This document shows positions 7,890 through 64,000 of a DNA stretch of 64,000 nucleotides, one piece after another. Position 1 is the first letter of the stretch; each line of letters opens with the position of its first letter. This DNA is from Moniliella sp. 'wahieum' (lineage: Eukaryota), in the NCBI GenBank assembly GCA_003971905.1, contig RSEE01000041.1, positions 310,001 through 374,000 of the forward strand, in the 5' to 3' direction. A program made the position numbers and the translations under genes. The notes beneath the pieces were generated by a model, which saw only the letters and a program-made list of their open reading frames with translations, was not told the DNA's origin and made no database searches.

Positions 7890-8554
7890 GGAGGTTGCCG
7901 TCTGTGGACGATACGTCGGCGAGGGGGGGCTGGGGAGGTAGGGGAGGTGCGGAGCGGCGAGGCGAGGCGAAGCAAAGCGAGGGAATCCGGCCTGAGTTCA
8001 ACGTTGAACATTCAATAGGCAACCGCAGTTCAAAAGGCCCGGTGGCTAGAGCGTGGTTTGAAACATTCAGTGCGTCATCCAGACTTCTTGACACATGTCA
8101 CATGTCATGCTCGGCGCTGACACCGAGGGGGTGGCTGTGGTTGTCTTTTTTCAGAGGGACATACCAAGTTGAGAGCTGACTCGGAGAAGTGAGAGTTGAG
8201 AATTCTGGCGTCGAGCGCGGATTGAAGGGCGTGGATTCCAGGCATATGGAACGGTATGCGTTGGTGCACTTATACCACCCAACGCTGCTGGGGGCAAGTC
8301 GTGTTCGGCTTAGGTCGCGGAGAACGCGTTGGGTATGGGACCCCATTTTGCTCCTGTTCCATCTGGTGTGTTTGGTGTGGGGGGCCGATGTCGAAGAACG
8401 GCAAGGAGCGGGCGAAGTGCTTCAGCTCCACCACGTTGGGGCGATGGAAGCCACACTGTAGTCCTAACTAGCACTCTAGGACTAACTTGACATGGATCGC
8501 ACTGCGGGCTCAACAACTATACGCGGGATGGAAGGCATAAAATGGAAATGACGT

Positions 8555-11500
8555 CTACAGCACCGAATAGCGCCCAGGCGCACTAGGGCCCCGAGCATCC
8601 GCCTCAAATACAGCCTGGTCGCTTCAAGGAGGATCATCTTGATCTCCCGGATCGCATGTTCGATGCGCTCGGGTTCGTTGGACTCGATGAGCAGTTGAAG
8701 CTTGGGTGGGTCGCCCAAGTTAGGCTCTTTGCCCTTATCGTAGAACGCGCCTTTGGAGGTGACCGATGCTCCAGTAGTCTCGACCAACATAGTCATCGTC
8801 TCCTTGTTCGTCACGCGCCAGCGGGATTTCTGGGGGAAGTCGTTGATGGGGATGATGGCATGGAAGTCGGTCGCGTCGGGGTCCTTGGGTCGGCGCGCAG
8901 GGACAAAGCCCTGGGCAGCGAGGCTGGCCTGACGAGCTTCGTGTGCTCCTTGATCTTCGACAGGGCGGCCAAGAGCTTGGAGGTATCTGCGCCACTGGCC
9001 GCGGCCGACTTGATCGCTGCCTCCATCATGCTCTGTTGCTGCGCCGAGCGGTTCAAGTTGGCATCCTCCGGGGGAGCCTGGATCTTGTTTTCTTTGATAA
9101 AGTCGGCGCAGGGCCCTTGCGCACCTCGATCACCATATCGTTGATGCCGCTTGATTCCTCACCACCTTCCGCCGCCCCCCGCAGCACCGGCACCCTCCTT
9201 GGCGCTTTCCTTGCCTGCTGCCGCCGCCTCCGCCGCTTCTTCGTCACCTGCTTGGCCAAGGTCGACTGTTGTGCCTGCAGCGCTTTCTTGCGGTCCGAAT
9301 CAAGACGCTCCAGACCCTTGCCACGGAAGCCCGAGCCAGACGCATGAGCCTTCCCAGTCTGTACTTCTCACCAAATTTGGTAGCCAAAGCTTGCAGCTCG
9401 GGAGGAACAGCAGTGTTGCTCGCCTTCAGTGCCGACACAATGTCGCGAGCGAAACGTCTTGTTGGGGTGTGATGAATGTAACCACTGTCCCACGGTTGCC
9501 CGCACGCCCCGTTCGCCCCGCCCGGTGCACATAGTCTTCCAGGTGGTTTGGCACGTCATAGTTGATCACCAACTGGAGCTGCTTGACGTCCAGCCCACGC
9601 GCCGCGACCGAAGTGGCAGTGACAATCGGGACGACCCCTGCCTTAAAGTCAGCAATGGTCGAGTCGCGGTCCACTTGATCTTTGCCGCCATGGATGGACA
9701 TGGTAGGGTACCCTTTCCGCATCAACTCGCGCAACAGGTCGTCCGCCGACTCTTGCCGTTCCACAAAGATCAGCGTACGGGCATCCTCATCATCATTGTA
9801 CGTCTTGCCCAAGATTTCGAGCAAGCGGGTGAACTTGGTGTCCTCCTCGCGCACCTCAACCAGTTGCTCAATTTCCGGCGGAACCACGCTCTTGCCCCCC
9901 ACGACAATCTCGAGAGGCTTGTGTTTGAGAACCTTGCGCGCCAAGCTCTCCATCTGCTTGGGGAAAGTCGCAGAGAATAAAACAGTTTGACGTTCAGGGC
10001 GAATGTTGTTGACAATGTTGGTCACCTGCGGTTCAAATCCCATATCAAACATCCGATCTGCCTCGTCCAGAACCAGGTACGTTACCCGGTGCACGTTGGT
10101 CACCCGCCCCGAGTTGGCTGTCAAGAGGTCAATCATCCGTCCCGGCGTCGCAACCACAATCTCGGCCGTCTTCTTCATCTCGGCGATTTGTTCCGAAATG
10201 GGCACACCACCATAGACACTAACTGCTCGTAAGCCCAGACCACGCAGAAATGGACGACACTCGCGGTAGATCTGCACGGCCAACTCGCGAGTTGGAGTCA
10301 TGATCAACGCAATGGGACCTTCGCCCGGCTCGAGTGGACGTTGGTCTTTGATGTGCCGCAGCATTGGTAACAGGAACGCCATCGTCTTTCCCGATCCCGT
10401 CTTTGCCACCCCAATCACGTCCCGGCCGGACATGATGGCTGGATGGCCTGGGCTTGGATGGGCGTCAGCTTCTGGTAGCCCAGCTGCTTGATCACCTCCA
10501 CCGTGTTGGCCGGTAAACCAAGATGACTCCACTTGGTAATTGGCCGTGGGCAGTCCTTGCCACGAATTGAGATGCCGTCCAACTCGCGCCGAAGCTCGTC
10601 CGCCTCTTCATCGCTCATCTCCTGCACTTCCGCAGGCGGGTGGTAGAAGGCTTTACGGAACGGCTCATACTCTTGCTTGCTGTGGTCCGTCTGCGGCATA
10701 CCTTTCTTCTTGATGTTCTTGGCCGCTGCCGTCATGATGGCATCAATATTGGACAGCTTGCCCAGCTGGTCTTCCTCCTCTTCCTCGTCCAGGTCTTCCT
10801 CAGCATCGGATTTGCCGTCGAGCTCCTTCCGTGCATCCGTCGTACCATGCGATGCGCCCACTCGTGTCCGATCCATCTCGTCCACCTGTTTCACCTCTTT
10901 CTGACCGAGGCCATATAGGCTTCCAGTGGATCCTCCTCTTCCAGAGAATCGACCTCCATAGCGTCGGCCACGATGGGCGCAACATTGTCTTTAGACAGGA
11001 CCGGCTCGTCGCTCAAGGCCGAGCCGGAGGAACGGTTGAGCAGCAGGGACAACGATGGTTTCTTAGGAGCTTCTTCCTCAGCCATATGCGACAACTTGAA
11101 TGGGGTTGTGGACTTGCGGGACGTAGACCCCCCCACGAAGAGCAAATCCCTTGACTCGGCCTGTCTGCAGGCTGGCCGGCTCTGGAGGAACGGAAACAAC
11201 AAAAACAAAGACAAAACAAGTCAGTTTGGCAACATTCAACGTCAATCGATCAGGAGGAAAACGTACTGGCCGGTGGGGGTGGGGCACGCGGTCGCAGAAG
11301 GGCCCTTGGCGGACAGGCTCGGATTGGCACTCTTATTTGCCTCTTCTTCTTTTTTGGCCCGCCGCCACGCCTCGAGTCGGGCCTTCTTGGAAAGCTTGTC
11401 GGTCTCCTTCGGGGCCGGCGTAGTGGTGCTGGAGGGGTGGATGCTGAAGCAGGAGCAGGGGCAGGAGAGGTACCCGCCGCCGCCTCAGCAGGGGAAGGTG

Positions 11501-11995
11501 CAGGGGTGTGGTGCTAGGGGCGGAAGAGGGCGCTGAGGGAGCTGACGCGACCGAAGGCAGAGGCGCACCACGCGGAGAGCTCGTGGCGGTGGGCCGGGCG
11601 GGGGAGCAGGGGCAGGAAGAGGGGCGCGGAGTGGCCTGGTCGAAGCGGGACCGGCGCGAGGGCGGGGGCGGGCGGCAGGGGGCAGACGGTCGGGAGCAGG
11701 ACGCTTGAGGCTGCCGCTGTGCCAGCGGCTGCGGGGCGGAGCGTCATGGGACTGCTCACGAGGCACCGAGGAGGCAGAAAGGGGAGTGGTCAGGGGGGGC
11801 TGCGGGGCGCGGGGCGCAGTGGCCGGCAGGCTTACTCATGGTGGCGCTCGATGCCGCCGCTGCCGACGGCGACGGAGACGGCAAGGACGCCTCCGCTGCG
11901 GCTCGGGCCCCCGCACGCGGACGGGGGGCATGGCGCCCGTTCCCAAGACCACCGCCAACACTCGGCGAGGCGTTCTGGCGGCGGTCCCAGCTCAT
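8555..11995 (-). CDS. PRP5: Pre-mRNA-processing DEAD-box helicase PRP5/DDX46 (start approximate; introns near 11.8 kb and 11.2 kb)
   Basis: [30 protein letters not shown] and HRAGRTGR motifs; N-terminal RLEAWRR and [11 protein letters not shown]-terminal KH-like [24 protein letters not shown]. Confidence 0.93.
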
Positions 11996-12293
11996 GGCAG
12001 GTGCAAGTGCGTGCGGAATGCAGCAGCCAGCGGCGATGGTTGCCCAAATGCCGCCGAGGGCGCCCAGCAGGCGCAGCGGGGGCCCTTGGCGGGTTACGTC
12101 AGCTGCGCCCTGCTGCTGGTTCCGTCGGGCGTTTGCATGCCCTCAGAGAAGAAAAAGCAGCAGCAACCCTACTTATCTTAGCAGCCCCGATGGTGTCCAT
12201 CATCATCATGCATCATGCACCATGGCCCCCCTGCAGCCCATGGTCGTCTACGTCTCGGCTACGAATGGGGACTGGGACGGCTAACATCAGATC

Positions 12294-13879
12294 TCAGACG
12301 AGGGAAGCTGTGGGATGCGATGGCAGGGAAATTGAATTGGTACACATGAGTGAGAGAGATGCAGGCCGAGGCAAGGGGAGTGGGAACGAGGCGGGGGAGC
12401 AGGGGGATGGCATGGTAGCTGCCACCTTAATTTTCATCCGTCGGGAACAGTTAAGGCTGCCAACTCGGGATCGGCACACGTGGTGGCCCAGCCCGGGAAG
12501 CCAACTGGTACGGCGCAAGGTGCGACGGGTTGCAGCGAGTGCTGCAGAGGCAGCAAGGGAAGGCTGGGAGTACATGAGCGCACGGGCCATACTGAGGGGG
12601 TCGGGCGTGCTAGCAAGGTAAGGCGCCGACTTGGCATCCGCACGAGGAGGCGGTAGGCACGTAGGCGCCCAGACGTATGGTGCAGCGTTCCAGCCAGTCC
12701 CGGGGTGGAGGCATGGTGTCCATCGGGCTGGAAAAGGAACTAACCATAGGGGGCGGCAGCAAGGTGCGCGATGCATCCCCCAGTGGGCAGACGGGTGGGG
12801 TAAAGGTAAACTCGCCCGTGGGCACTCGCACAGGTTGGGGTGAGATGGGGGAATAGACACCGTTCCCGGGCACGGACAGAGACGCCGTCCGTTGGTTCGC
12901 AGAGGCGAGCACACTGGGTAAGGCGGTGTGGCAGGCGAGGACGCGAGGAAGGCCAAGGGACTAGCTGCCGGTGATGCATACCGGAGCGCTTGTTGCTGCG
13001 CAGCCAAATCGGACGCTTGGACTTCCGAAGCGCGCTGAGCCAGCAGATGGGTTACATGCGTCCCCCACGTAGCAAGTTGGTCGGAAGTAACGTGAATGCT
13101 AAAGCCTAGGCCGGCCCATAGTTGCGCTTCACACGCCGTGACAAGCTTAGTCGGGAGCGATACAATGTCTGCCCACGTTTTGCTCGTATAGGTATGGTCC
13201 TCAAGCAATTTGTTTGCCAACACCAGCCCGGCCACGGATGCACGGTACTCGGACTGAGTTCCTCCGAGTACTTCCGGGTGGAGATGTTTAAAGCGTCGGA
13301 CATACAGTCTGCGCCCCAACTTGTCGTCAGTATATGAAAACAGGAGCGTAAGGACATGACTTACAAGGCCACCAACAATGAATCATGTGTTGGTCGCAAG
13401 CTGCGAAAGACCTCCCGTAACCCGAGACAAACTGAGGACAGGGCCGTAAACGGCGACTGGTCCGGTCCTCCGCAAGAGGAGGAAGAGGGGAGGTGCTGCC
13501 GGGTAGGAGACCGTGGGTCAAAGCGGTGTAGGAAGTCGTTGGCTCGGAAGACTAGGCCAGGCGGGCCTGGAGAGAACCACAGGGAACAGACAACTTCGGC
13601 AAACCACTTTGCCATTTCCGTGTAGGAAGGACGAGTGGATCGTGCACGGGGTCGCTTGGCTGTGGGTTGAATAGCGGGCAAGGGCAGTGCCTCGGGGTGA
13701 ACGACGGGTGGATAGTCAGCGCATGGAGGCTGCAAGGGGTGGTAGTGGTGGGCAGGAGGGGATGGATGGGAATGGGATGCCTTGCGCTTTGGCCTGGACA
13801 GTGCCGCAGGAATGGGATACTGGACGGAAGCGGGAAGGGAGGACATGGAAGCGTAGCGATTGGTCTCCATAGTGGTCAT
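12294..13879 (-). CDS. Cyclin-box protein (Pcl/Clg1/Pas1-like) with low-complexity tails; ends approximate
   Basis: Cyclin-fold motifs AKWFAEVVCSLW, HDSLLVAL.YVRRFK and YRASVAGLVLANKLLEDHTYTSKTWADI..EAQLWAGLGFSIHV. Confidence 0.75.
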
Positions 13880-14814
13880 AGCAAAGGCGAGCACACCCAG
13901 GGGAAGAAGTATGGCTGGGGTGGCGGTGGTGGCGGTGGTAGAAGCACAAGCAAGCAAAGTTGTGTGGGTGGGAAGGAGAAAATGGGCAAATGACCGCCAG
14001 AGCTAACTAACGTCTAGCCGTCAGCGTTCACGTTGCGGCGTAGACAACCTATAGAAAACCCACGGTGTGAGCATGGGCGGGCGTGGGGCAAGACGGGTTA
14101 GGCGTTGAGAGTTTGCAGGTGTGAATCAGTGATGAATATTGCATGCGCGCATTAATCACCACCGTCGGGCGTTTGCGGCCGGCACCCGCGTACCACGTCT
14201 TGCACATGGTGGCGGGTGGTGGCGGGCAAGTGGAGCGAAAGGGTTGTCTGATCTACGTAGCATGCGCAGCCGGCAGCATGTAGCGTGTCGTGTGTGCGCC
14301 CCCTTGGCCAGATTCAAAGAGCGTCGAGCCTCCCCACTGTGGCTGCGCACCAGCATGCCTACGCATCATGCACCACACATCAGCCCTCTGTCGTCTCATT
14401 CTCCTCGTCTCATCGCCCCATCGCCTCATCCATATTCGATCGCAATATCTCATCCCACAGCCCATGGGCCCAGACTGAGGCGCTGGCCAGGCGGCTGCGG
14501 CCGAGGCCTGAGGCGCCGAGGCGAGACGCTGAGACGCTGAGACGCTCTGACGCTGGAGGCCCTAGTAAGTGTTGCCCGAGCCTCGGCAGTGCTCGACTCG
14601 GTGCAAGCCAGCCGCGTGATCGAGTGATCGTGAGGCGGTGACTATGAGCCTCACACGCCTCTCAGGCCTGAGGCCCTGACCTGAGGCTTCCAGGTTCTAG
14701 CTGCTTCAGCTTTTCATTCATGCAAACTCCATGTGAAGTGACTGGTGACCTCATGTCACTGGTACAGCAGGTGAAGCTTGAACTTCCAGTTGAAGCGTGT
14801 GGCGGTGGACATGC

Positions 14815-15031
14815 TGTTGGGACCCGTGGTCCCGTACTTAGGCCAAGGCGCCTCATCACCCTTCACACCCTGATTTGTCCTCCGAAGCCTCCACGTGTAT
14901 ACTCAGGCTTGTCTGAACCCCTGTCTCTAGGTGTGGCACAAGGCTTAGACCTTAACCACCACCATCGCGATTGCATTGCTCTACATTTCCAGAGGTTCTT
15001 CCCCAATCCCTTGGGTTCCTCCGGTCTTACA
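14815..15031 (+). repeat. 5' LTR
   Basis: TGTTGGGACCC...GGTCTTACA, direct repeat of 20151-20367. Confidence 0.97.
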
Positions 15032-15045
15032 GAGTTACAATCCTC
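15032..15045 (+). promoter_or_regulatory. Candidate primer-binding site (GAGTTACAATCCTC), non-canonical
   Basis: Abuts the 5' LTR. It lacks the TGG start expected for priming by a tRNA CCA end. Its reverse complement reads as an anticodon arm, GAGGA-TT-GTA-AC-TC. Confidence 0.55.
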
Positions 15046-15137
15046 TTGACGCTCAGCCCTGAGCCTTCCACTCTTACACTCTTCGGTCCTCCGCTGCCGG
15101 CCCTATCCACAAGCGCTTGCTCGAACTGCGTAAGCTA

Positions 15138-18100
15138 ATGGCAAGCATCATGAGCTCTCAGACTCAGGAGTCTTGGTTCAACTCCTCAACCCCTACTTCA
15201 CCAACTGCCGGAGCAGAAGAGAGCACCACTCCCGTCGGAGTTGACCACGCCTCCCCGCCGCTGACACCATCGCGTGAATCTACCCCTACACCTCAACCCA
15301 CCCCCGTGGGCCCCGACAACACCGCGAACGACGTCGCCACCCTCGCCGACCGCATTCGCAACATGTTCAAATTGTTTCCCGAACACATCACCCTCAAACA
15401 GCTACAGGACACTGGTATCAAGCTTGGGTACAGCGAAAAGACGACCACAGAAGCCATTGTCATGTTATCATGTGAGAATCCACCCAATGCTAGCAAGAAC
15501 GAAGGTGCCTTATCGTCAACTCCGGCCGTCGACGACAACCCGTGGGCTTTGACTCCCGACAAGCTCCTCCGTAGTGCCACTCGCAGCAACGTGCCGTACC
15601 ACGAGCGTTTCCACAACAACAGCTCGTTTTGGTTATGGACCCGGATCTTCCTCCCTCGTATCCAGATTATCCCTGGAGCGCGTGAGCATCTGGAACAGGG
15701 CAAGGCCCTGGACGGGTATAACGCAGAACTGGACGCTCACTTGGCCAACATTCTACTCCCGTGGATAGACTCCGACGTCGTCCAGCAGATCACCGGCGAT
15801 GGCACGCCGGCTCTAGGGTCTGCATACTATCATGCTCTGCGTGATTTGTACGGCACCGTTTCAGACACTGAGATCTGTGATATCCTCATAAAGGTTCTCA
15901 CTCTCAAAATGGGCACCAAGTCGGGCCGCCAATACCTGAATGAGTTCACTGTGGCGGTAACCCAGTACGAGATGACGTCCAAGTCCAAGCTGGACGAGAT
16001 TGGTCTAGCACAGATGCTACGGAAAGGCGTTACTGATCAGGGGTGGTTGCACCTCCATCGTAACAGCAGCTACGCCGAATTGCGCCGAGCAGTGAGCGAA
16101 CTCAAAGGCTCCAACTACGGCAGTACCTCCAGTTCAAGCCCAGCTCCCTCCAGTACGGCCCCTTCGGAAGCCACGTCGCACAGCCAAACAAGCAGTACGG
16201 TGACAGGCCGCGGACGAGGCCGAGGTGGCAGCGGGTACAGAGGAAGTCACCGTGGTGGCCAACGTGGCGGCCACTTTAGCCGGCCGGCTACGACAGCCCA
16301 GACCACCTCATCTGCCCATGCAGTAACCCCTATGGCAGCCACTACACCACCCAAGCCAGCCAACCTCCCTGCGCAACACGATTCAGGTGCGAGACCATCC
16401 GTATTCAATGAACGAAGTGCGTTTATCAATCTTCGTCCACACCGCGAGCCCATAGCAGTGGCAAACGGACAGATCGCATACACTGAAGGCATTGGCACCA
16501 TCTCTATGTACATTCAAACCCAGAACGGAGCCCCTATCCGCATCCACCTACCCGGCAGCTTGTACTGCCCCACCTTCCCGACCAACCTGCTCAGCGCTTA
16601 CCATCTATCTATCGCAGGCATTGGCAGCTGGATCCCTCCAGGTGGCCATGGTCTCTATCTCGGACGACACGGCGAACCTTTTCGTCTCGCCGCCGACTCA
16701 AGCTATTCCCTTACTCTGGCGCCCAATACGACAGCCACAGCCAACAGCGCCACTTCGCTACTCAACCTTGATGCAACCCTGGTCAAGGTGAAAAACGCCC
16801 ACATCCGATGGAATCATGCACCTCTAGATCAACTTTCATCCCTCACGTCGGATGACCCAGCATTCGAACGGGTCAACAGTGGCGACATCGCTTTAGTCCG
16901 GTCCTCGTGGCACTGTGCACCATGCGCATTAAGCAGAGCCACTGCCCCACCCCACGCCACGACTGGACGCCCAATCCGAACCATTCGCCCTTTCTCTCTC
17001 CTCCACCTCGACGTCCTTGACATATCCCGCCAAGGCGGCGGGGTCATACTTACGCCCTTATCATTGTCGACGACTTTACGCGGTATACCTGGACGCTACC
17101 CCTGGTGTCCAAGGGTGATGCCACAGCCGAACTTCAAGCCTTCATCCGGCGCGAGCATCGCCAACATCCCGACCGCCCCCTTCAGACGGTCCGCTCTGAC
17201 AATGCGCCTGAACTCACCACCGCAATGGACGAGTTTTACTGCGAGCTGGGAGTAGTGAGCGAGCGCACCAATCCTGGCGAAAGTGCGTCCAATGGGGTCG
17301 CCGAACGCGCCATAAGATCGATTACGGATCGCGCTCGACTCATGGTAATCGCCAACAGATTGACTCCCGACGAGTGGTGGGAACACAGCTTGTTGGCGGC
17401 CACATATGCACACAACCAGTCGCCGCCGAAAGCACTGGGTGGGGACAGCCGATTTGTCCGGTACCATGGCTTCAAACCCTCCCTTCGCATGCGCGGTTTT
17501 GGCACTCTTGCCTACCTGCACCTATTGCCCAACCAACGCGAGGGCGGCAAACTTGGTCCGCGGGCCGTCCCAGCAATGTTGGTGGGTTACGGGCACGGCC
17601 GCGGTTCGAAGGGGTGGCTCTTTGCCATCCACCAGGACGACGGCCAAGTTGGATTCCGTTGGAAAAAGCCGTCCACCTGGACGCATGTCCCGTACACCAC
17701 CGAATATCCCACGCACTTTCATCTGGACCCCCTTGTCCCTGCTGGTGGCGGAGAGGTGCGGGGGGGCGGAGAAATGGGTGCTGGTGGGGAAGTCAGACAG
17801 CTCCCCACCCCGGCGTGTGCGTTTTGCGATAGATGAACTGACCCGCGATACTAATGGTAAGAAAGACAATGCCCCCCATGGAAAAAGAAAATTAAAAGAA
17901 CGAAAAACAGAGGCACATCGCCCGGCTCAAGCCAACGAAAATGAGAATTCAGAGCCTGGCCCCACTCCCACCAACTCCAACCCCCCACATGTATCCCCCC
18001 AACCTGTTGCATCTGACCCCGCAGGCATGGCACAACGCCAGGCAAAGCAAGCCGAAGAAAATGAAACTATCACAGAAGATGCCGTTGACACTGGCCACCA

Positions 18101-20112
18101 AGTCCTGCTTTCCCCTCCCTCTTCCACTTCCCCTTCCTCTCCCGCCCTATCCCCTCCCCTCTCTCCCCCACCGACACGCTCGCCCCCGTGACCGTGCCCC
18201 TGACCGATACAGCCGTCCCCGCACTCGTGCGTCGCAATCCCGTTCGCCAAGCGCGTATCAACGCTCCACCCCTCGACCTGTCCATTCCAGCCAACGACAA
18301 TTTGCGCGATGGCACCTTTTCCCTGCTCGTCAACAAGGCCCCTAGCATCTTTGGCAACCCGGCCGCCCTCTCCGCCCTAGGAATGCAGGCTTTGGTGAGT
18401 ATTTTCGGACCAGCGCCGGACACATCCATGCTACCTGCTTCGGAGCCAAGCTCGCCCCCCATTGCACTCGCAATCGAATCCGCGGCAAGTGACACCGAGG
18501 TCATACTGACCACCGATGGGGTCCCGGTGGCCCCCAAGAACATCAAGAAGTTGGTGGGTCACCCTGCCTTTGATGGCGTACTCGAGGCAATGCGCCTCGA
18601 GCTTCGGCGTTTTGACGAGCGTGACGTGAAGGAAGTTGTACCCATCCCCCCAGGGATCAAACCCCTTCCCGGCATGTGGGTCATAGGTACTAAGACGGAT
18701 GCGGATGCTAACTTCCTCAAGTACCGTGCCCGCTACGTTGTGGGAGGGCACCGGCAAGTTCCTGGCACATGGGCGAAATCTTTTGCTCCTGCCGTTCGTA
18801 CTGCTGCCGTCAACACGCTAATTGCGTTGGCCGAAGCTGATGGCCTCCACTTATTTTCTGCCGATGTGGAAGCTGCCTACCTCTATGCCGATATCAACGA
18901 GCTCGTCTATGTTCGACCACCCCCTTCTTCCCAGAAGCGCCCGGTCATTGCTGGAGACTCAAGAAAAGTCTCTATGGCCTGCACCAGAGCGGGGCCAACT
19001 TTGGAGATTGGCTCCGCACTTTCCTTTGCGACCGACTCCACTTCACTAGCCTAAAATCAGAGCCTTGCCTGTTCATACGTCGCACCGAACCTCTTGGCCT
19101 GATCCTAATCGCCGTCCACACTGACGACTTTTTGGTCGCGTGTCGGTCCCAAGAAGCGTATGATGAATTCTTAGTGGAATTAAGGCGCAGCATCCAAATT
19201 AAGTCCAACGGCCCCCTACGTTTCCATCTCGGCTGCCAATACGACCGTATCGATGGACGACTGTACATCAGCCAACCCAAATTCATCGCTGAGACGCTTG
19301 CCGCGCATGACATATCACCTCACCGGCCCCGCTACCTTCCAATCGGCCACCAACTTCCGCCTCCCAAGCGACCCGAACACGAAAAGCGTGCCACTCGAGA
19401 CGAGCACCGTGCCTACCGTTCTATTGTCGGATCCAGCTTGTGGGCGGCTCGTATGTCCCGGCCTGATGCCCTCTTTGCGGCTACCTTTTTAGCGCGGTTT
19501 ATGGACGACCCGTCCGCCGCCCACCGACGCGCAGCGGAGGACCTATTACGTTTCTTCGCCGGTACGTCTGACTACTCTTTGTGCCTCACACCCAACCGAT
19601 CTCGCCCTCTACTCGAGCTGCACACCGATGCCTCCTTTGCATCAGACAAGAGCAACTCTCACTCCGTTTCGGGCCATGTTGTTTTTGTTTTCGGTGTGCC
19701 TGTATCCTGGGGCTCCAAGTCCCAAAATCAAGGTGTGAGCAACACAGCAGCATCTGAATACCTAGCCATGGGAGATGGCCTTCGAGATGCTCTATTCATT
19801 CGCAACATACTGTTTGAACTTGGTGTCTGCAAGGCTAATCACCCGATTGAGCTCTTTGTTGACAACACCGCTGCCAAAGCGTTGGCCGAAAAGCTCGGCA
19901 GCCTAGGCAAAATACGGGAGATTGACGTCTCGTACCACGAGGTGCGGGAACGCATCCACCGAGGCGAAATTAAAGTCCACTACACTCCAGGTGCACACCA
20001 TCTCCCTGACTGGTTCACCAAACCTCTTTCTCTTCCCAAGATCATTTCTGCGCGTAACAATTTCGATTTGGCTTTCTTTCTTCGCGCTGATCCCCTTCTT
20101 TTTTTTTGTTGA
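15138..20112 (+). CDS. Copia Gag-Pol polyprotein, interrupted by several 1-nt frameshifts
   Basis: Protease HDSGA; GAG-pre-integrase HIRWNH..CAPC; integrase LLHLDV / VRSDNAPE / NGVAER; RT KYRARYVVGG, DVEAAYL, VHTDDFLV; RNase H HTDASFA, SEYLAM, VDN, DWFTKPL. Confidence 0.93.
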
Positions 20113-20150
20113 TGGCCAACGGGCTCTTTCGTTCCCTTGGCCCGGGGGGG

Positions 20151-20367
20151 TGTTGGGACCCGTGGGTCCCGTACTTAGGCCAAGGCGCCTCATCACCCTT
20201 CACCCCTGATTTGTCCTCCGAAGCCTCCACGTGTATACTCAGGCTTGTCTGAACCCCTGTCTCTAGGTGTGGCACAAGGCTTAGACCTTAACCACCACCA
20301 TCGCGATTGCATTGCTCTACATTTCCAGAGGTTCTTCACCCAATCCCTTGGTTCCTCCGGTCTTACA
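20151..20367 (+). repeat. 3' LTR
   Basis: Near-identical copy of the 5' LTR, preceded by a G7 PPT and followed by the CATGC TSD. Confidence 0.97.
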
Positions 20368-21040
20368 CATGCTGGACAAGTGGACAAAAGACCGTCCCAC
20401 CCATTCGCCCATGCTTTGATCCCATCGCGCTACTGCATGCGTGGGAAATGGGAGACGGTCTCGATGATGGATGATGCCGATGTGGGATGTACAGGGGCAT
20501 GTGCATGATGCATGATTCGGCCTTCGAACGGCGGCCAGGCGGGCTTGCTAGCTCCATGCTACACGAGGAGAGCAGTGGCAGGGGGCGACAGGAGGAGGAT
20601 GTGTGATGCTGCTGGAGATGCAGAAATGTGTGACATGTGATGATCGATCGATGATCGCGGATCGAGAGAACCATTCATTAATCAGCGACAATCGACAACG
20701 GTTGAATTCTTCGTTCTGAACAGTTTGGGATCGCTTGAGCTTGAAGCTTGAAGCAAGCTAGTCCAAGCTTGAGTTGCTTGAGTACCTTGCGCTTCAAACA
20801 AAAAACCACGCCCCCAGCCATGATGCATGATGCATGACGCCAAATACGTGGCGCATGGCGCGTAGCCAGTAATTAAAACAGCGGTTGCTGCGGCGGCTGC
20901 GCCTTGACGATGGTTGGACGTTGGATCTCTCTGGTTCCCGGTGTGGCGGCCACATGCTTCCAAGGGGCTCAATTTTTTCAAGGCCGAAGGCCGAAAGCAT
21001 GGGCGCCCTACGCACGACACCCTTTCGCCAATCATCATTG

Positions 21041-21076
<36 letters not shown>
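21041..21076. repeat. (CAT)12 microsatellite
   Basis: Read directly from the sequence. Confidence 0.95.
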
Positions 21077-21077
<1 letters not shown>

Positions 21078-22377
21078 GACCCCATGTAGCTCCGGTTTGC
21101 CGATATGCAGCGTTTCTTCGTCCCTGTTCAAGTTCTGTACTGGTATGAAAAACTCCAGTAGAAAACTAAGTACTAAGTACTGCCATCAACGCACTGTTGT
21201 GGTTGGCAGAGCAAATTAGGCCTGGGTGCGGTGACCGGTGACCATGGAGTTCACGCCAGATATACTTCTCCTTAGGCCTTACTAGTTACTAATTTTGCGT
21301 TAACGCCATTTACCGGATATACCCGCCGCGTCTTCTGCCGCGTCCAGCCGCCCCTTTTTCTTCACGCTCTCCCATCCAACCCCCAACCCCCTGGCACACA
21401 CAATCGCGGCGCACAGGCACAGCATGCTGGGAAGCCCCTCAATTCAATCCTGCATCCAGAGCTTCATCGAAGATTGTCCCCTCCCTCCATAGTGTGTGGG
21501 TGAATGGCGTGCACTAATGCGACGAATGCATCGTCGGGGACCGGGGCTTGTTGCATGCCATGGTCACATGCCACATGTCACACCGCCACAACGCCTCCCA
21601 ATAGAGCTGAGCTAAATTTCGCCGTGCCTGCCTTCTCGGAGGAGCACCGGCCGCTCCCTCCCCAAAATTCATATGCTCAGCGTCAGCAGTGACTATAGTG
21701 AGGCTCGCTGTATAATACGCGCTCCAACCTAGTCACTGTGTTCACATTGTTCACAACAGAACGGCCTGGTTCATTTCTACAGAAGCGCGGTGGCTGTCGT
21801 TGGTCAGGCGCCCCAGGCTGGGGGGCTGGCAACAGCTCCGGAGCCGCAACGACGGCGGATATATCCCAGGCACCCTTAATAACCTGGCCTAATGCCAAAA
21901 GGCCTAAAAGGCCTAAAAGGCCTAAAATTAAAAGGTCTAACTAGTAAGCCGGTAACTCCCAACTAGCCAAGGCCTAGCAGGGCCCATCTCCCGGTTTTGG
22001 GCCAGCCACGGCAGGCCACGGCTACCCAAATTCCCAAACGCGTCCTTGGCAGAGAGGATACCGCGGTCCCGGCCAATCAAGTCCCCTGTAGACCAGAAAT
22101 TGCACATCAGACAGTAGCGCGGAGCTGTTTTGCGCCCTGGCGTCTGCGGCTTGGCCGTTACCGCGTTACCGGATGCTGGGGCTACCAGAGTACTAGGTAC
22201 TGGCTGGACGGACCCAAAGTGACCTCACCGATGAGACTCATCTCTGAGGTGGCCGGTGCCTGTGAGTGCATGCGAGCGGTGACCGTCACCTGCCACAGAG
22301 TCCAGAGGCTCCCGAGGCTCCAGAGGCCCACGGCGGTCTGTTATCTGACCAGTGACTCACTAGTCAGTGACTAGCGA

Positions 22378-22440
22378 GGTGATCCGGTGACCGGTGACCG
22401 GTGCCGGTGATCATCGATCACGAATGACATGGACATGTGA
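22378..22440. repeat. Period-7 quasi-palindromic micro-array (CCGG-TGA)n with adjoining TCGA and CATG units
   Basis: ggtgatccggtgaccggtgaccggtgccggtgatcatcgatca...gacatgtga. Confidence 0.85.
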
Positions 22441-23580
22441 CAATGATTAAGGAAATTAATGCCAGGCCCCCGGACTCGGCGCAACCAGCAACCTCCAACC
22501 TCCCCCGCAGCACACCCTGGCGCTGAAGCGCTGAAGCACTGAAGCTTGAAGATAACAAAAGGGGCCGGAGAAGTCGGAGAAGCTCATTGAGCTCATCCGT
22601 CACGGTCACTAGTCACTTGGTGCTAACGGACATGCCATCCCGGTGTCCATTGACCGAATAGAAACCATCGACAGTCCACCGGCAAATACTCAGCGGCTCA
22701 GCGCGCTCACCGAGCGCCCATTTGCCACAAAAAAGCTGCATCAGCCATCTGCATCATCAAGCCAATAAGTATTTGCCTTCTTAGGCCTAAGCCTTAGTTA
22801 GGCCTTAGACTACCACTTACCGGTTACCTACCCGAAACCGGGAGTTACCGGCCGGTTACCATCAGCGCCTCAGCCTTTCAATCGTTGCACATTGTGCCCA
22901 GCGCGGCCAGCTCATAAAAACGCCAACAGCAGTGATTAAAATGATCGCAACACAAAGCCCGCAATAGACCACACAACTCTCTGGAATCAGGTACCTTAGT
23001 GGTGCCCGCTCGTCGTCTGGGGATCATGCACATCATGCATCATGTGCATCATGCACGGCGCTCCGCCACATATAATACTTGGGTCGGTCGATGGCCGCAC
23101 TCCTGTTGACACGCTGTGCCTGTGGCGGCGCCAGACTAAACGAATCCGTCAAGCCCACGCAGATGAAGCTGTGGAACTTGTGCATTATGCATTATGCCAC
23201 CTGGCTGTGCCTGTACGTGTGTGACGGTGTGACATACGGCTGCGGTGCAAAAGAGGGGGGGGAGGGGGGCGTGGTCTCATTAGCATTATCCACACCTGCC
23301 CCACACCTCCTGAAGGGAGTGTATATATCCCGTGTGGATACGAGCATGCGCCGCGGCAGTGCGGCTCGCTCTGAATTGATGTCATGACACGCATGATGCG
23401 GAGGGTCTTCAAGCTGGAAGCGCCGTAACATCTAAGATCTAAGAAGGAAGCTTCCGGATTCAATACGTGACGGGCGGTGCGTGACGCCGCGACAAGCGAA
23501 GCCCAGCATATATGACCTCGAAGAGGCTGCAAGGCAATAACGGCACTATTATAAGAGAGAGAGCGATCGCGGCGAGCGGT

Positions 23581-23626
23581 GTTCAACGTGTTCAACGGTT
23601 CAACACGTTCAACGTTCAACGTTCAG
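23581..23626. repeat. Period-7 micro-array (ACGT-TCA)n
   Basis: gttcaacgtgttcaacggttcaacacgttcaacgttcaacgttcag; related copies at about 7996, 26083 and 51133. Confidence 0.9.
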
Positions 23627-27770: not shown

Positions 27771-28347
27771 GGCAGCGGTTGCCGGTGGTGGAGGGGGAGG
27801 GGGGTGTGGGTGGGGAGAGCAGTGGCTGGCGGCAGCGTGCCAGGCGGAACTGCGGGCGGAATGGTGGGCTGGCAAGGGGATGTGGGCGTGACGCGTCAGC
27901 GCCAGGGCTGGCTCTGTGCTGCGTCATCGGTATCAATCATCAACATCGTGCGACAGGCACTGACGTCATCGTGCGGCGCCGGATGCGGATGGCGCGGGCC
28001 GCCCGCCAGAGGGATCGGGGTGGGGGGCTCGGCTGCGAGGATGCGCAGCGTGCACAGCACGCCGGGCACGCGTCTGCCTCGGGCATGGCGCGGGCCCCCG
28101 TCCCAGCCGCTTCGCTGCCGCCCGCACAGCTCGCCCCGGCGCCAGAGCCCCATCCCCATCCACATGCGCCTGCTCCATGGAGCTCACATGTCACAAGCGG
28201 TGGTGACGCCGGTGATGTGATGGCCGAGCCTCATTTGTCATGCGCAGCAATCTAGATTAGTATAGCCGCCGCCATAGCCCCCTTCAGTCTGTCTCCCCCT
28301 CGTGACGCCGCCACCATCCACCATCCATCACCCCCACCCCCCCCACC

Positions 28348-43480: not shown

Positions 43481-44329
43481 GACGCCTGGAATATCGTTGG
43501 TGGCTGAGTCAATGGAAGGCCGAGCCAGGCCGACGGTGCAGCCTATGTTCAAAGGCAAAGCCAGTTGCTAGTTCCCACCTCCATTCGTTGGGGGGCACAG
43601 TCCTTTCACAAGTATGACAGGATGCATGATGCATGATGCTGCCGTGTGACAATGTGCGAACACAAAAAAAGTAGTGCCCACACACTGGGCCAACGGCTGT
43701 ATTTGGGACCAAGCGTCTGTGCGGAACAGCCTCAAGACGTCCGCCACGCCACACGCGTTCGCACGGCCCCCGCAGGCGCTAACCTCGGCCCTCACACACC
43801 TCACGCTTCAGGCTGAGTGATTGATGACTGGATAACCTCCATCCACCCATCCATTGTATTACTTCTGTCTGCAGCACCAAACCGGATGCGATGCTACAAG
43901 CTGAACGAGAGAGATGCGATTGGGGGGGGGGGGGAGGAGGACTTCCATGAGTACTAAGTCAAGCAGTCCCATCCGGGCGTCAGCACAGAGATAAGAGGGG
44001 GGCAAAAGATTTTATGAAGCTCCTTAGGGGCAGGCGAGTAGAAGGGAGCACAGAAGAGAACAAGGGACAAGGGGGCACAGAGGAGAGAGAGGCGACGCAA
44101 AGAAGCGGCGAAGCGAATACCACATAGAGTAGCTGCCTTTCCGTTCTGGGGACGAGGGATAACACATTGTGAGGGAAGGGGAGGGGGAGGGGGGGGCGGG
44201 GGAGGGGGAAAAAGGAAAGCGAAAGGGGGGGTATCAACAGTCGGGCCCTGGCACACACGGCCCATCCCAAACCCCCATCCCAAAACGGGAGGGGGGGGGG
44301 CACTGTGGCGGACAAGCCGACGGAAGGGA

Positions 44330-49114: not shown

Positions 49115-49586
49115 GAGCAAAGAGACAGACAAGCTGATGGAAGCCACCCAACCACCGCCCACGCCCCCCCCCCCAACCATCAAACAACCTTCGGGCCTCA
49201 GAGCTTCGGCCTCGCTGAGCCGGCCATTTCCGAAGCCTCCTCCTGGTTCCGCCCGGGCCGCCGAGCCAGGTGTGCACAGTAGGGTTGTCACGGTCATCCG
49301 TCTTACTCATGCACTCATGCATCATTCGTCCTGCGCCACGCTGTCATGCATCATGACGTAGTCATCGCTCACCGACAAGGCCATCGATCATCCCGTGTCG
49401 CAATTTGCCTGCCGCATCACGTGCACCTCGTTGCTTTGTTTCCAACGTCAAATCCACCGTGGAGCCGCGCACTCTGCCCATTCTGTACCCATCTTTCCCA
49501 GCCGGACATGCCCCAGCAGGGGTGTATGAATAGGAGCTGAGGCTTTTGCTTATTCGCGTAAAAATGAAATGGCAAGCCCAAAAAAG

Positions 49587-50916: not shown

Positions 50917-51365
50917 CGCGGGTCGGGAATTGGAGGGGGGAGATTCGAGGTGAGTACGTTGAACTCAACGATGAGGTTGAGGGTCGAGTCAAGGTCATCA
51001 CCCCCCCCACTCCATTGCGATTGCGCTGGCGGCACCAGCAGAAGGGAGGCAAGCGGAATGGACAATGTTCCTCTCGCCCACCCAATTCCGAACATTGGAC
51101 ACGCCCCGCGTTACAGCGTTCGTTCAGCGTGTTCAACTGAACGTTCAACGTTCAACGTTCAATGTTGAAGCTTGCATGATGCATGGAGTTACGAAGCGTG
51201 AGGTATGCGAGGCCACCCCGTTCCTCCTCTGTTCCGCCCCTCTGCGGGTTGCCTGCACCTGATGGCATCGGAAAGCAAAAGCGGGAAGAGGGAAAGGTTG
51301 GGTGCAACGCACGTCACTACCTCACCGATGGATGGCGACAGTAAAATACCGAACGTGTAAGAACT

Positions 51366-51460
51366 GGCAATGTGCCCGAGTGGTTAAGGGGATTGATTCG
51401 AACTCTGTTTGAAATATCAATTAGGCTTCGCCTGCACAGGTTCGAGTCCTGTCATTGTCG
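51366..51460 (+). tRNA. tRNA-Ser(CGA) with a 13-nt intron (51403-51415)
   Basis: Acceptor stem GGCAATG/CATTGTC, anticodon arm ATTGA-TT-CGA-A^A-TCAAT, long variable arm AGGC-TTC-GCCT, GGTTCGAGTCC, discriminator G, T7 terminator. Confidence 0.95.
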
Positions 51461-51778
51461 TTTTTTTGCTCGTATTAGCGCAGATGAGGGGGATTCGCAG
51501 GAATGACTTGTGTTCGGTACGCCGTCGCCATACAAAGGCTAGGCATGCGCTGGTGGAGGATGGGGGGAGGACGGGGGACATGGCATGGATGAGGCTCATC
51601 AGTGCCTATGGACTACGGCGATGACCTAACAGGGCACTGAGCTTGAGCCTGTTTTAGCCCGCCTTGGCGGCCTTGGCTAGGAATAAGAGAACCACATATT
51701 GGTCGCATATTCAGTACCCCACATTGCACTCTGCACCTTTTTTGTGCGACCCACCACCACCTTCCTTTCACCATCTAC

Positions 51779-53137
51779 ATGCTTGCCAGATCTCTCATTA
51801 TTCGCCGCATGCATCCCATGCACCGCCTCGGAACACGCACCGCGACGGCCGGACTGTCGCATAGTGCCCCCATCCCCACCCCCTGCCGCCTGCACCCTCG
51901 ACCATCACGGCCCGCTTTCAGCTTCCGCAGGTGCCGCCGCCGGCATCGACCGCGTTTGCATCCAAGGAGCGCATGGCTACCCGCATTGCCCGTGACTTTC
52001 GTTCTGACACACTCACGGTCCCCAGCGACGAAGCAATTGCGGCCATGGCCAATGCGTCCGTGGGGATGATGTGTACGAAAAGACGCCACCACGAGCGAAT
52101 TTGAGGCCAGTTGGCCGCCCTACTCGGGAAGGAGGCCGCGCTCTTCTGTACCAGTGGCACAGCCAGCAATCAGCTTGCTGTCCGCACCATCTGACTCAGC
52201 CACCTTACAGCCTTTTGTGCGACGCCCGCGCTCACATCTTTCTACGAAGCCGGCAGCAGCGATGCTTACCGGCACTCACACCATCCTGTACTGGCCGAGA
52301 CGAATGGCCACCATATCGTATGGGAAGACTTGGAATCGAAAGTGGTTGCCGACGATGGGGATGTGCATGGAGCTCCCACAGCTGGTGTGCCTGGAGAATA
52401 CCCTCAATGGCACCATCTTTCCCCAAGAGGAGATTGTGCGGATCGGGGAGGAGGTGCACAAACGGGGGATCAAGCTTCATCTCGATGGCGCACGGCTGTG
52501 GAACGTGGCAGCTGAGACAAACATGCCCTTGGCTGAGCTTTGTGAGCCTTTTGACTCGGTCAACCTGTGCCTGTCCAAGGGCCTGGGTGCCCCGATTGGC
52601 TCGGTCCTAGCGGGGAGCAAGCATTTATTGCCAAGGCGCGCCATTTCCGTAAGGCGTTTGGCGGCGGGTTGCGCCAGACTGGGCCTATCGCAGCGGCGGC
52701 CCGCGTGGCGCTTGAGACGGGACTCCCCAAGTTGAAGGCGACGCATGAGCTGGCGCGGTGGGCCCAAACCCAGCTGGAGCAGCTGGGGGTGCAGATTACT
52801 ATCCCGGCCGAGACCAATATGGTGCGTCCTGCCTGCTTTGTTTGGGGCCTGTACTGACTTGTGGCCGGAAAAGCTCTTTATCAACACGCAGCATTGGGGT
52901 TGGCCGGATGAGCTGGTGGAGCGGGCGGCAGGACTGCCTGAGCCGTTGCTGACCTATGGCGAGCGCTTGGTCTTCCACCTCAACACAAGCCCGGAGGCCG
53001 TGGAGGACTTGGTTGGGCTGGTCGCGCAGCTCAAGCGGGAGAAGCTGGCCAACGGCGTTGAGCCCGACGGGGCGCAGGAACGCCGGCGCGCGGGGGGGAG
53101 CATCTACGGGCAGCGCAAGCGCACCGAATCGGCCTAA
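51779..53137 (+). CDS. GLY1: Low-specificity L-threonine aldolase; intron at about 52822-52873
   Basis: RDFRSDTLT, VGDDVY, LFCTSGTASNQLAVRTHL, CLENT, LHLDGARLWN, PLP-lysine motif CLSKGLGAPIGSVL, GGGLRQ. Confidence 0.92.
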
Positions 53138-53382
53138 GGCCTAATCCCATATCCATCCCCAGCCAGCCCGCACCCTCACGCCCAGGCGCGCGCAAGCGAA
53201 GCCGGCCAGAAAGTTGCAGCAGCGGCGCACAAATAGGCATCGGTGCAACAGATGGGGGACAGGCGGACAGGCGTCTTACGTCAGACGGCAATTTTTTTCA
53301 GCAGCGGGTTGCTAGCGAGCCGCACATGGGCTGGCGGTGGAGCCTCTTCTCCCCCACCGGCGTGCTCTCCTCGACCACCGCG

Positions 53383-62918: not shown

Positions 62919-62964
62919 GTGGCGCGGGTGGGGGGGGGGCGGAGGAGCGGGGGGGCGGTTTGAA

Positions 62965-63011
62965 TACGGTGGTGAGTACGGTGGTGAGTACGGTGGTGGA
63001 TACGGTGGTGA
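62965..63011. repeat. 12-bp minisatellite (TACGGTGGTGAG) x4
   Basis: Read directly from the sequence; lies just upstream of the probable RasGEF start codon. Confidence 0.85.
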
Positions 63012-63550
63012 TTACCGTGTTGAATGCGATGTCGGATGGGAAAGTCGATGCAAGGGTGCTGTGTGCTGCTGCTGCTGCGTGCTGCCTACGCCTACTAGTA
63101 CTGCCTACTGCCAAGTGCGACTCACCGCGTCTGCATGTAGATCGCATTCCGCGGCCGAGGGACGCGCCGGTCGTGTGCGAGCGGGGTGCGGCTCGGGGCC
63201 AGTGTGGCTGCCCGCCCGCTCCAATTGCAATTGCAATTGCAATCGCAATTTCCATCCCCAGTCCCCACTCGCCCGGGGCGATCCCAATCCCATCCCACAC
63301 ACAGATTTCCCATCTCACCCGCCCTTCCGCACGGGCCTGCCCAAGCCGAGCGGGAGCTACTAGCTACGGGCCATGGACGCACCCCAGCCGCTGCTATCGA
63401 CCCGCTCGGTAGTATCCAATCCGTCCTCGATCCGCACGGAAAGGACTGTGGCTTTCAGATGCCCCTCCCAGATGCCCCCCTCGAACCCCCTCGAACCCCT
63501 TTCGAGGGGAACACATGTAGACGTTTTTCTCAGGCCTCAGCCAACGGTCC

Positions 63551-63602
63551 GGTCACCTGTCACCTGTCACATGTCACATGTCACTGTCACATGTCACCTG
63601 TC
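63551..63602. repeat. Period-7 micro-array (CATG-TCA)n with degenerate units
   Basis: ggtcacctgtcacctgtcacatgtcacatgtcactgtcacatgtcacctgtc. Confidence 0.9.
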
Positions 63603-64000
63603 CCCGGGGGGAGCCCGTTGAGTTGAACGTTTGAACTACGGTGACCAAGTAGGGTAGAATGAGTGAACACCCCCGCCATCACTGATGGTCGATGGATGAG
63701 TCGATGAGGTCCTCGGCCTCGTCTGCATCGATCATCGATCACCATGTGTCATGCATCATGCGTCATGATCTTTTTCCTGTCCTTACCCTGCTCATCGACA
63801 CCGCTCAGCTGAACTCGATCAGGGTCCGACCGCACCGCCCAACACGCCGCCCCGCTCCCGGTGCACCTGTCATATCGTCCGCAACCAGCCCCCAGCTCCC
63901 CACCAAGTACTAACCCACGCGGCTCCCAGGATCTCGCAGCCCCCCCCAGCCAACTCTGCGGAACCGCGTCTACCAAAACGACCCTCGCCCCATCCTCTTA

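Follow-up and report, generated by a model that had tools for sequence, protein, structure and literature searches.

Several groups of DNA transposons (hAT, MULE and Transib) as well as the RAG recombinase form hairpins on the flanks of the break; host enzymes resembling Artemis may open these, and end joining may then unite the ends. The target duplications made at insertion are 8 bp for hAT and 8–10 bp for MULE elements (PMC5499845, excerpt). The footprints left by Ac/Ds have been described as palindromic and flank-derived (PMC4561436, excerpt), and P nucleotides as measuring 1–3 bp (PMC3528771, excerpt). Here, we have analyzed one 64-kb window of the fungus Moniliella sp. 'wahieum' (the whole stretch of 64,000 nucleotides at positions 310,001–374,000 of contig RSEE01000041.1, GenBank assembly GCA_003971905.1), together with one metagenome scan, and we describe short period-7 arrays in this window that combine a 4-bp palindrome (pal4) with the trinucleotide T-N-A. 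The minimal recurring unit is the 12-mer [TNAab][b'a'][TNAab], i.e. a 5-nt direct repeat around the reverse complement of its last two bases, which occurs 66 times on both strands, at 35 loci, compared to approximately 0.2 occurrences in 40 order-3 Markov simulations. Literature searches turned up no account of palindromic arrays of period 7 centred on T-N-A; PMC13234504 proved to be unrelated.

The repeats of the window share a retained direct target duplication with the footprints of hairpin-forming transposons (Ac/Ds, other hAT, MULE and Transib) and with V(D)J coding joints. Like the P nucleotides of V(D)J recombination, they show a loop-free, flank-templated palindrome at the junction, in which the 2-nt additions fit an opening 2 nt off the hairpin tip. 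Artemis prefers hairpin opening at +2, and the target duplication of Transib is 5 bp.

PIF/Harbinger elements accept any middle base in their T-N-A duplication and have been proposed to cut 5' of T on both strands, leaving 3-nt 5' overhangs, while excision of mPing is described as precise (PMC4561436, excerpt). The sites in the window resemble the T-N-A/TWA target of this superfamily (Tourist, mPing) in that the middle base varies freely between a fixed T and a fixed A; however, PIF/Harbinger elements make a 3-bp duplication, excise mostly precisely and leave no palindromic additions, whereas the window repeat comprises 5 direct and 2 inverted nucleotides. The canonical footprint of Sleeping Beauty and other Tc1-mariner elements is TA-C(A/T)G-TA, its centre coming from the element ends and its middle base being resolved at random. 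That footprint is likewise a 7-bp odd palindrome with an ambiguous centre, but the corresponding model gives pal4-TNA-pal4 as the smallest unit and mixed N and N', whereas the smallest unit in the window is TNA-pal4-TNA plus 2 nt, with N the same in 56 cases and complementary in 7. Bacterial heptanucleotide repeats (cyanobacterial STRR, Xanthomonas GGGAATC) reportedly form period-7 intergenic tandem arrays whose units sometimes differ by locus; unlike the fungal arrays, which reach approximately 3.3 perfect units at most and have 11 cores, they are long, lack palindromic T-N-A units and often occur as inverted pairs. Template-switch mutations and synthesis-dependent microhomology-mediated end joining generate small insertions that mix direct and inverted adjacent copies, yet such insertions vary in length and have no fixed trinucleotide, whereas the events in the window always consist of 5 direct and 2 inverted nucleotides at T-N-A. 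The pattern may tentatively be regarded as hairpin- or P-nucleotide-type scars with an unusual target, uniformity and density.

Excess, specificity and anatomy of the repeats

The palindromic period-7 T-N-A pattern is real and far above chance. An excess at period 7 is visible among perfect tandem repeats of at least two units, of which the window contains 65 with period 6, 41 with period 7 and 5 with period 8. In 23 of the 41 period-7 repeats, the unit is a rotation of [4-bp palindrome + T-N-A] (binomial p = 1e-25), a class that would account for 448/16384 = 2.7% of 7-mers by chance and that can equivalently be described as an A....T hexamer palindrome plus one base or as the odd palindrome x1x2-T-N-A-x2'x1'. 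When the same pal4 is repeated across a trinucleotide X-n-Y, TnA is found 25 times and each of the other 15 X_Y classes 1–7 times, the counts of AnG and CnT (7 each) representing an alternative register of TGCATGA. These 25 cases of pal4-TnA-pal4 compare with a mean of 0.48 and a maximum of 2 in 60 order-3 Markov simulations, and 56 cases of TnA-pal4-TnA with identical N compare with 2.08 in 40 such simulations. Under the same Markov order, AnT, CnG and GnC flanks around pal4 are not enriched (0, 4 and 2 vs 1.3, 6.1 and 6.5), nor are 2-nt palindromes between two TnA (8 vs 7.35), and 6-nt and 8-nt palindromes in this position are weakly enriched at most (3 vs 0.45 and 2 vs 0.10). Non-symmetric period-7 repeats show only the general excess that is also present at periods 6 and 8. 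The first-pass annotation of this DNA, made by a model from the letters alone, had listed such arrays across the window and proposed counting them genome-wide against other spacers and a Markov background; all of the listed arrays are present, and in the counts made within the window the other X_Y spacers and the Markov controls lie far lower.

The 12-mer is also specific for T-N-A. With any of the other 15 XnY classes in place of TnA, its structure is found 0–6 times, AnT, CnG and GnC giving 0, 0 and 0. The spacer equals the reverse complement of ab in 66 of the 80 [TNAab]-2 nt-[TNAab] repeats, while 1-nt and 3-nt spacers match this rule at chance level (6/36 and 2/29, respectively) and a spacer drawn alternatively from the T side was seen in 0 cases. 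The base after N is A (A 66+14, C 0+4, G 0+1, T 0+4). Of the 66 pairs of TNA copies in TNA-pal4-TNA, 56 share the same N, 7 have complementary N and 3 show another combination; N is carried over by direct copying rather than re-made. The centre is A or T at 9/35 loci and at 464/1788 TNA sites outside Pfam-supported open reading frames (ORFs), i.e. 26% in both; the use of N matches its availability, and N is free at the T-N-A centre.

Symmetric period-7 runs peak at 12–13 nt, fall at 14 nt and form a small second group at 19–20 nt (11 nt, 10; 12 nt, 15; 13 nt, 12; 14 nt, 2; 15 nt, 3; 16 nt, 4; 17 nt, 3; 19 nt, 3; 20 nt, 3; 21, 22 and 23 nt, one each). A single insertion rule describes most of the 12-nt class: 11 of the 15 runs of 12 nt lie in the two predicted phases of seven, 6 of them reading T-N-A-a-b-b'-a'-T-N-A-a-b and 5 its mirror (p = 4e-4 vs chance 2 in 7), and 0/15 start in pal4-first phases. 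The palindrome is locally templated, one half of it being the local flank bases in 11/15 12-mers. That its first half consists of the two bases adjoining TNA explains why 11 different cores are found in strict 12-mers (TGCA, CATG, GGCC, ACGT, GATC, AGCT, CCGG, TCGA, CTAG, GTAC and ATAT, with TGCA recurring at 9 loci and CATG at 7), in agreement with the many unrelated palindromic cores that had been remarked on in the first reading. Isolated TNATNA shows no enrichment (51 vs 50.1 expected), and two adjacent pal4 occur 3 times vs 0.27, with fitting flanks in just one of them; each event makes exactly one new palindrome. In the compound zones 22357–22445 and 43371–43480, up to five cores stand between shared TCA/TGA. 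At 63552–63570, the mutated unit GTCACCT is itself duplicated, which suggests that ordinary slippage probably also acts on existing arrays.

The repeats are excluded from coding DNA. None of the 66 12-mers, and none of the 35 loci, lies inside Pfam-supported ORFs (p = 1e-6), as expected for a frameshifting +7 insertion. Scar loci are found 5' of genes (49344, 63565), between divergent genes (28184, 51140), and 3' of genes and on stop codons (5514, 40423, 53131). Two events made use of stop codons, namely the TGA of the ORF that ends at 5515 and the TAA of the one that ends at 53134, and in both the extra copy lies downstream. It had also been pointed out that three TGA/TAA units close all reading frames, which is arithmetically true and a mere consequence of period 7. 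The arrays had further been thought ready to form hairpins, but their single strands do not fold unusually well: the DNA-fold z-scores of seven array regions are -3.07, -0.62, +0.97, -1.70, -2.19, -0.45 and +0.73, i.e. unexceptional (|z| < 1) in 4/7, with predicted folds that include mini-hairpins of 4–5-bp stems and 3-nt loops. Overall, the pattern resembles the outcome of mutation rather than a signal, and we tentatively read the arrays as mutational scars and not as a code.

The individual loci are given below in window positions, with no strand assigned (.) to any of them.

3986–3997: single 12-mer TGAGG-CC-TGAGG, core GGCC, within a 13-nt period-7 run
5514–5525: single 12-mer GTTGA-AC-GTTGA, core ACGT; the YchF-like ORF 4547–5515 has its stop codon in the first TGA
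7996–8009: perfect 10-bp palindrome TCA-ACGT-TGA of the complementary-N class, then the decayed unit AACATTCAA; previously taken for an ACGT tandem array
8092–8107: (CATGTCA) x2.3
12204–12219: (TGCATCA) x2.3
12287–12298: single 12-mer TCAGA-TC-TCAGA, core GATC
20502–20516: (TGCATGA) x2.1
20629–20657: 12-mer TGTGA-CA-TGTGA (core CATG), then TGA-TCGA-TCGA-TGA, the sole case fitting 'both overhangs kept'
20738–20754: (AGCTTGA) x2.4
20819–20837: (TGCATGA) x2.7, a 19-nt run in predicted phase
21165–21181: (GTACTAA) x2.4
21229–21243: (CCGGTGA) x2.1
21270–21291: CC-TTA-GG-CC-TTA-CT-AG-TTA-CT, two events with one TTA in common; an ancestral site CCTTACT would have been used on both sides, GGCC coming from its left flank and CTAG from its right
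22357–22445: compound zone with cores CTAG, CCGG (x3), TCGA, CATG and TTAA between TCA/TGA
22540–22551: single 12-mer TGAAG-CT-TGAAG, after the period-8 variant GCGCTGAA x3.2 (22520–22545)
22605–22617: single GTCACT-AG-TCACT, core CTAG
22781–22828: TTA-GGCC-TAA, TTA-GGCC-TTA and 12-mer TTACC-GG-TTACC
23023–23056: (TGCATCA) array including 9-nt variant units
23181–23197: (TGCATTA) x2.4
23430–23444: (GATCTAA) x2.1
23579–23626: (ACGTTCA) array, last 21 nt perfect, earlier units with 1–2-nt fillers (GT, G, AC)
24096–24108: single GTCACA-TG-TCACA, core CATG
26021–26033: single TGTAA-CA-TGTAA, core CATG, centre A
26072–26121: 12-mer TCAAG-CT-TCAAG, then a decayed (ACGTTCA) array
28184–28195: single TCACA-TG-TCACA, between divergent SEP/UBA and OSBP genes
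34686–34697: single ATTTA-AT-ATTTA, core ATAT
35796–35808: single, core GATC
35939–35958: (GGCCTTA) x2.9
36612–36624: single GTGACA-TG-TGACA, core CATG
40423–40435: single TTGAAC-GT-TGAAC, core ACGT, 3' of a P450 gene
43371–43480: largest compound zone, TCGATGA and TGCATGA units with 5–10-nt variants and 8 strict 12-mers
43621–43639: (TGCATGA) x2.7
49305–49392: TCA-TGCA-TCA (x2) and CATCGATCATC, 5' side of the prohibitin gene
51138–51185: (ACGTTCA) x3.3 with 23 perfect nt, followed by TGCATGATGCATG; a tRNA-Ser gene lies 180 nt away
53131–53144: (GGCCTAA) x2; the threonine-aldolase-like ORF 52736–53134 has its stop codon in the first TAA
63529–63602: TCA-GGCC-TCA, then a (CATGTCA) array with the duplicated mutated unit GTCACCT
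63726–63767: (TCGATCA) x2.3 and TCA-TGCA-TCA

A hairpin model and its rivals

We tentatively favour the reading that hairpin-type breaks at nnTNAnn targets with a 7-bp stagger left the arrays as scars, similar to the footprints of hAT and MULE elements and to V(D)J P nucleotides, and that repeated hits and slippage then made the arrays grow. Each event would add exactly 7 bp at T-N-A, converting cd TNA ab into cd TNA ab b'a' TNA ab or, as the mirror product, into cd TNA d'c' cd TNA ab. A cut-and-paste element would duplicate a 7-bp target cd-TNA-ab (nnTNAnn), symmetric about N, upon insertion, and its transposase would leave hairpin-capped flanks at excision by the chemistry of hAT, MULE, Transib and RAG. 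Both hairpins would then be nicked 2 nt off the tip, producing the self-complementary 4-nt 3' overhangs abb'a' and d'c'cd and leaving TNA double-stranded on both ends. Direct ligation of these ends would create a 4x4-nt mismatch, to be resolved by replication into one form or its mirror. The product would hold a perfectly symmetric new target, b'a'TNAab, on which rehits and replication slippage could build short period-7 arrays (the 19–20-nt group), while hits at array edges would use the next flank bases and thus give neighbouring arrays with other cores.

A perfect 4-nt palindrome built without a loop from whatever bases lie nearby is the hallmark of P nucleotides, which arise when a covalently closed hairpin end is nicked off its centre. 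In line with the observations, the hairpin model predicts an addition that is always +7, a single new palindrome, the same N and equal use of both orientations, which were seen 6 vs 5 times. In the window, TNA and two flank bases are directly repeated at a spacing of 7, as in a retained target duplication, and the nucleotides at the junction repeat the neighbouring flank in reverse complement, as P nucleotides do. A full 7-bp duplication would require that 2 nt of one copy have been replaced. From this anatomy we infer that a responsible element exists, that its target has a 7-bp stagger, and that hairpins are formed, opened at +2 and joined through a heteroduplex step. Among the origins offered in the first-pass annotation, one shared generating mechanism is much the better reading, and hairpin opening with P-nucleotide-like additions fits the observed structure, in which pal4 is made of two flank bases and their reverse complement with no loop and the TNA copies have the same N.

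Several points weigh against this hairpin reading. The targets of hAT and MULE elements (8 bp and 8–10 bp) differ from the 7-bp, TNA-centred target proposed for the window, and we know of no hairpin-type superfamily with such a target. Known hairpin transposon footprints vary in length, whereas only one product, without a length spectrum, is seen in the window; also unlike those footprints, the scars are dense enough to build arrays, and their number is very high (approximately 35 in 64 kb) for a window in which no element is present. A scan of the window for elements that have inverted ends and a duplication of 3, 4, 7, 8 or 9 bp detected none, its few matches being arrays that pair with arrays. 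Likewise, Pfam searches detected no DNA-transposase domain among 205 window ORFs of at least 120 aa and 106 ORFs of the non-coding zones (the shortest of 45 aa), in which only a copia-like retroelement appeared. The young pair of long terminal repeats (LTRs) of this retroelement was used as a clock for new events, and none was seen; no +7 scar lies within its LTRs or Pfam-supported ORFs. In addition, the 13-nt runs fit the predicted phases weakly (10/12, p = 0.057), the 12 symmetric runs of 14–17 nt lie off the 7k+5 lengths and would need chance extension or slippage, and insertion as the direction of change is presumed by the model.

Other candidate routes were judged by inference against the counts and dropped. 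A 4-bp palindromic target with a TNA overhang from element ends would give the wrong smallest unit, and N is not random as it would require; a 5-bp symmetric target xTNAy with the 1-nt offset of hAT could not supply base b; telomere-resolvase-like hairpin closure of a 3-nt TNA overhang would give complementary N, or +5; and breaks of Top1/Top2 type would give +4 or +1. Fold-back synthesis across a TNA mini-loop, one of the mechanisms suggested earlier, would need priming from an unpaired 3' end and would leave no direct second copy.

The same +7 product could also be made without a mobile element, by an endogenous or domesticated nuclease or by template switching during repair or replication at T-N-A. 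For example, a Harbinger-derived nuclease might nick 5' of T on both strands, followed by a fixed repair that copies TNA+2 and adds the inverted copy. This is a serious rival, if on balance an unlikely one: the window holds no element or transposase, the product varies far less than end-joining footprints usually do, and the scar density (35 loci in 64 kb) is very high. However, a 3-nt staggered break at a single TNA would be expected to give +3, +5 or complementary N through fill-in, snap-back or hairpin closure, and these products are not enriched, the observed one containing ab twice in direct and once in inverted orientation, with N unchanged; we know of no repair pathway making this +7 product. 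The tolerance of the PIF/Harbinger transposase for any middle base in T-N-A and its proposed 3-nt 5' overhangs would suit such a route (PMC4561436, excerpt). The same features recommend true PIF/Harbinger-type footprints, consisting of a 3-bp TNA duplication with a palindrome derived from two bases per element end or from interrupted gap repair, the free-middle T-N-A being exactly the target of that superfamily (PMC4561436, excerpt). The TNA copies are direct and have the same N, and TTA-GGCC-TTA recurs. Ends of the mPing type begin GG..CC. This explanation is nevertheless very unlikely, given that the palindrome is flank-derived rather than element-derived (11/15 12-mers, 66/80 repeats), that at least 11 families of element ends would be required, that the retained +3 duplication TNATNA stands at its expected number (51 vs 50.1), that the Pfam searches of the window ORFs found no DDE transposase of this type, and that mPing excision is reported as precise (PMC4561436, excerpt). 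Simple PIF/Harbinger footprints, which had been among the earlier suggestions, are disfavoured by the TNATNA count, the flank templating and that report of precise excision.

A quite improbable alternative is that the arrays are ordinary heptanucleotide microsatellites in which slippage favours self-complementary units, looped strands being held by pal4 stems and TNA triloops. The arrays are indeed tandem, short and variable, mutated units have been duplicated, mini-hairpins of the required kind appear among the predicted folds, and metagenome contigs commonly carry (GTTCAAC)n arrays (at least 124 matching stretches). Slippage should nonetheless proceed in whole-unit steps, whereas the modal class is 12–13 nt (1.7 units) in two fixed phases (11/15 12-mers); it cannot derive a palindrome from non-palindromic DNA, and it leaves unexplained both the restriction to T..A flanks (0, 0 and 0 for AnT, CnG and GnC vs 66 for TnA) and the different cores standing side by side at 22357–22445 and 43371–43480. 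Moreover, the folds are no better than those of shuffles in 4/7 array regions, and the unit sequence is constrained, 23/41 obeying pal4+TNA. Selection of a cis-regulatory or structural grammar, in which hexamers such as AACGTT, ATGCAT and ACATGT serve as dimeric-factor sites or DNA-shape signals and are multiplied in promoters, would account for the intergenic position of the arrays, many of which are found where two genes diverge (28184, 51140) or on the 5' side of a gene (49344, 63565), and for units that recur across loci (TGCA 9, CATG 7). We consider it highly improbable, because arbitrary neighbouring bases dictate the 11 cores, T-N-A is their sole common feature, some sites are instead located 3' of a gene or at a stop codon (5514, 40423, 53131), 20/35 loci fall in a single gene-less stretch and folding is unexceptional; the shape-read structural or regulatory code entertained in the first-pass annotation is not upheld for the same reasons. 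An assembly or sequencing artefact is scarcely credible, since it would not spare coding DNA (0/35 loci in 32% of the window, p = 1e-6), respect stop codons or obey a flank-templated rule with decayed older copies.

The window, its neighbourhood and the metagenome comparison

The window has a G+C content of 58% and a compact gene map that includes fungal genes for a Cdc25-like SH3+RasGEF protein, Tsr1, Gpi16, OSBP, a DEAD-box helicase and prohibitin. Among named relatives, the prohibitin ORF is closest to Tilletiaria anomala, with 90% identity across the aligned half, and to Thecaphora frezii (82%); the source is accordingly a basidiomycete from the smut-related subphylum. Pfam-supported ORFs make up 32% of the window, and the 728-aa ORF 37597–39780 is of low complexity and had no family match in the Pfam search. 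The otherwise compact map is broken at 20373–26100, approximately 5.7 kb without a Pfam-supported or long ORF, which carries 20 of the 35 scar loci and may represent either the remains of a mobile element or a regulatory desert. Adjacent to it, the copia-like LTR retrotransposon occupies 14813–20372 on the + strand and interrupts one long non-coding region; it has Pol_BBD, rve and RVT_2 domains in shifted frames, LTRs of approximately 219 bp (TG...CA) that are 96–98% identical, and a 5-bp duplication CATGC on both sides.

Several other short repeats were observed in the window. A period-8 array, GCGCTGAA x3.2 (22520–22545), and a period-9 array, AAAAGGCCT x3.4 (21897–21927), resemble the T-N-A grammar, except that T and A are separated by 2 or 3 bases; the corresponding counts (TnnA 3 vs 0.1 and TnnnA 4 vs 0.0 expected) each come from a single array. 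A perfect period-6 array of a palindromic hexamer, (CAATTG) x4.8 at 63222–63250 upstream of the Cdc25-like gene, is a true long palindrome and departs from the T-N-A rule. The gene-less stretch also contains an (ATC)15 microsatellite, equivalent to (TCA)n, at 21031–21077. Within the ORF of the SH3/RasGEF gene, a 12-nt repeat, TGAATACGGTGG x5.4 (62961–63025), probably encodes a 4-residue protein repeat on the minus strand. A tRNA-Ser gene (anticodon CGA) at 51365–51461 (+), approximately 180 nt from the (ACGTTCA)/(TGCATGA) arrays, probably carries an intron, given its length of 97 nt.

A metagenome scan with (ACGTTCA)3 matched at least 124 DNA stretches, mostly long one-unit arrays like those reported from bacteria. 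In 123 of the metagenome loci (451,634 bases), 6 strict 12-mers with another core were found at 3 places; rough scaling from the window simulations gives approximately 2–3 such 12-mers by chance, so that the excess is not significant. Instances fitting the rule occur in two contigs. In the contig with a GDP-mannose dehydratase (L078), at 5985–6026 and 10162–10173, AT-TGA-AC is flanked by (TGAATAT)2 and (TGAACGT)3, giving ATAT and ACGT cores, and a single GTTGA-AC-GTTGA is also present; in a contig with NACHT/ankyrin domains that looks fungal (L043), AGTAA-CT-AGTAA is found at 4274–4287. These instances are suggestive at most, and may be due to chance or to CpG decay, which could explain those in L078. 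Arrays of (GTTCAAC)n, with variants such as CAACGCT and CAACCTG, occur at several places per contig in L003, L029–L031, L042, L073 and others.

Possible implications for non-coding DNA in Moniliella sp. 'wahieum'

If the hairpin-scar reading is true, the rule by which cdTNAab gains b'a'TNAab would explain most short tandem repeats in the non-coding DNA of Moniliella sp. 'wahieum', which would then preserve a readable record of past DNA breaks at approximately one per 2 kb. Microsatellites would in this case be born from enzyme scars rather than from chance proto-repeats, through a break-repair route nearly free of length variation, and mutation alone would create palindromic promoter motifs in bulk. 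The rule [TNAab][b'a'][TNAab] is simple enough to be tested in any genome and could be used to seek the responsible enzyme. It is conceivable, though doubtful, that a lineage-specific DNA-cutting machine, either a new type of hairpin-forming transposon with a 7-bp T-N-A-centred target or a nuclease domesticated from it, acts genome-wide, makes one exact 7-bp product and thereby seeds palindromic heptamer microsatellites and new palindromic hexamers (AACGTT, ACATGT, ATGCAT) across promoters; non-coding insertions and new dimer-type binding sites would then have a dominant, sequence-programmed source in such a machine.

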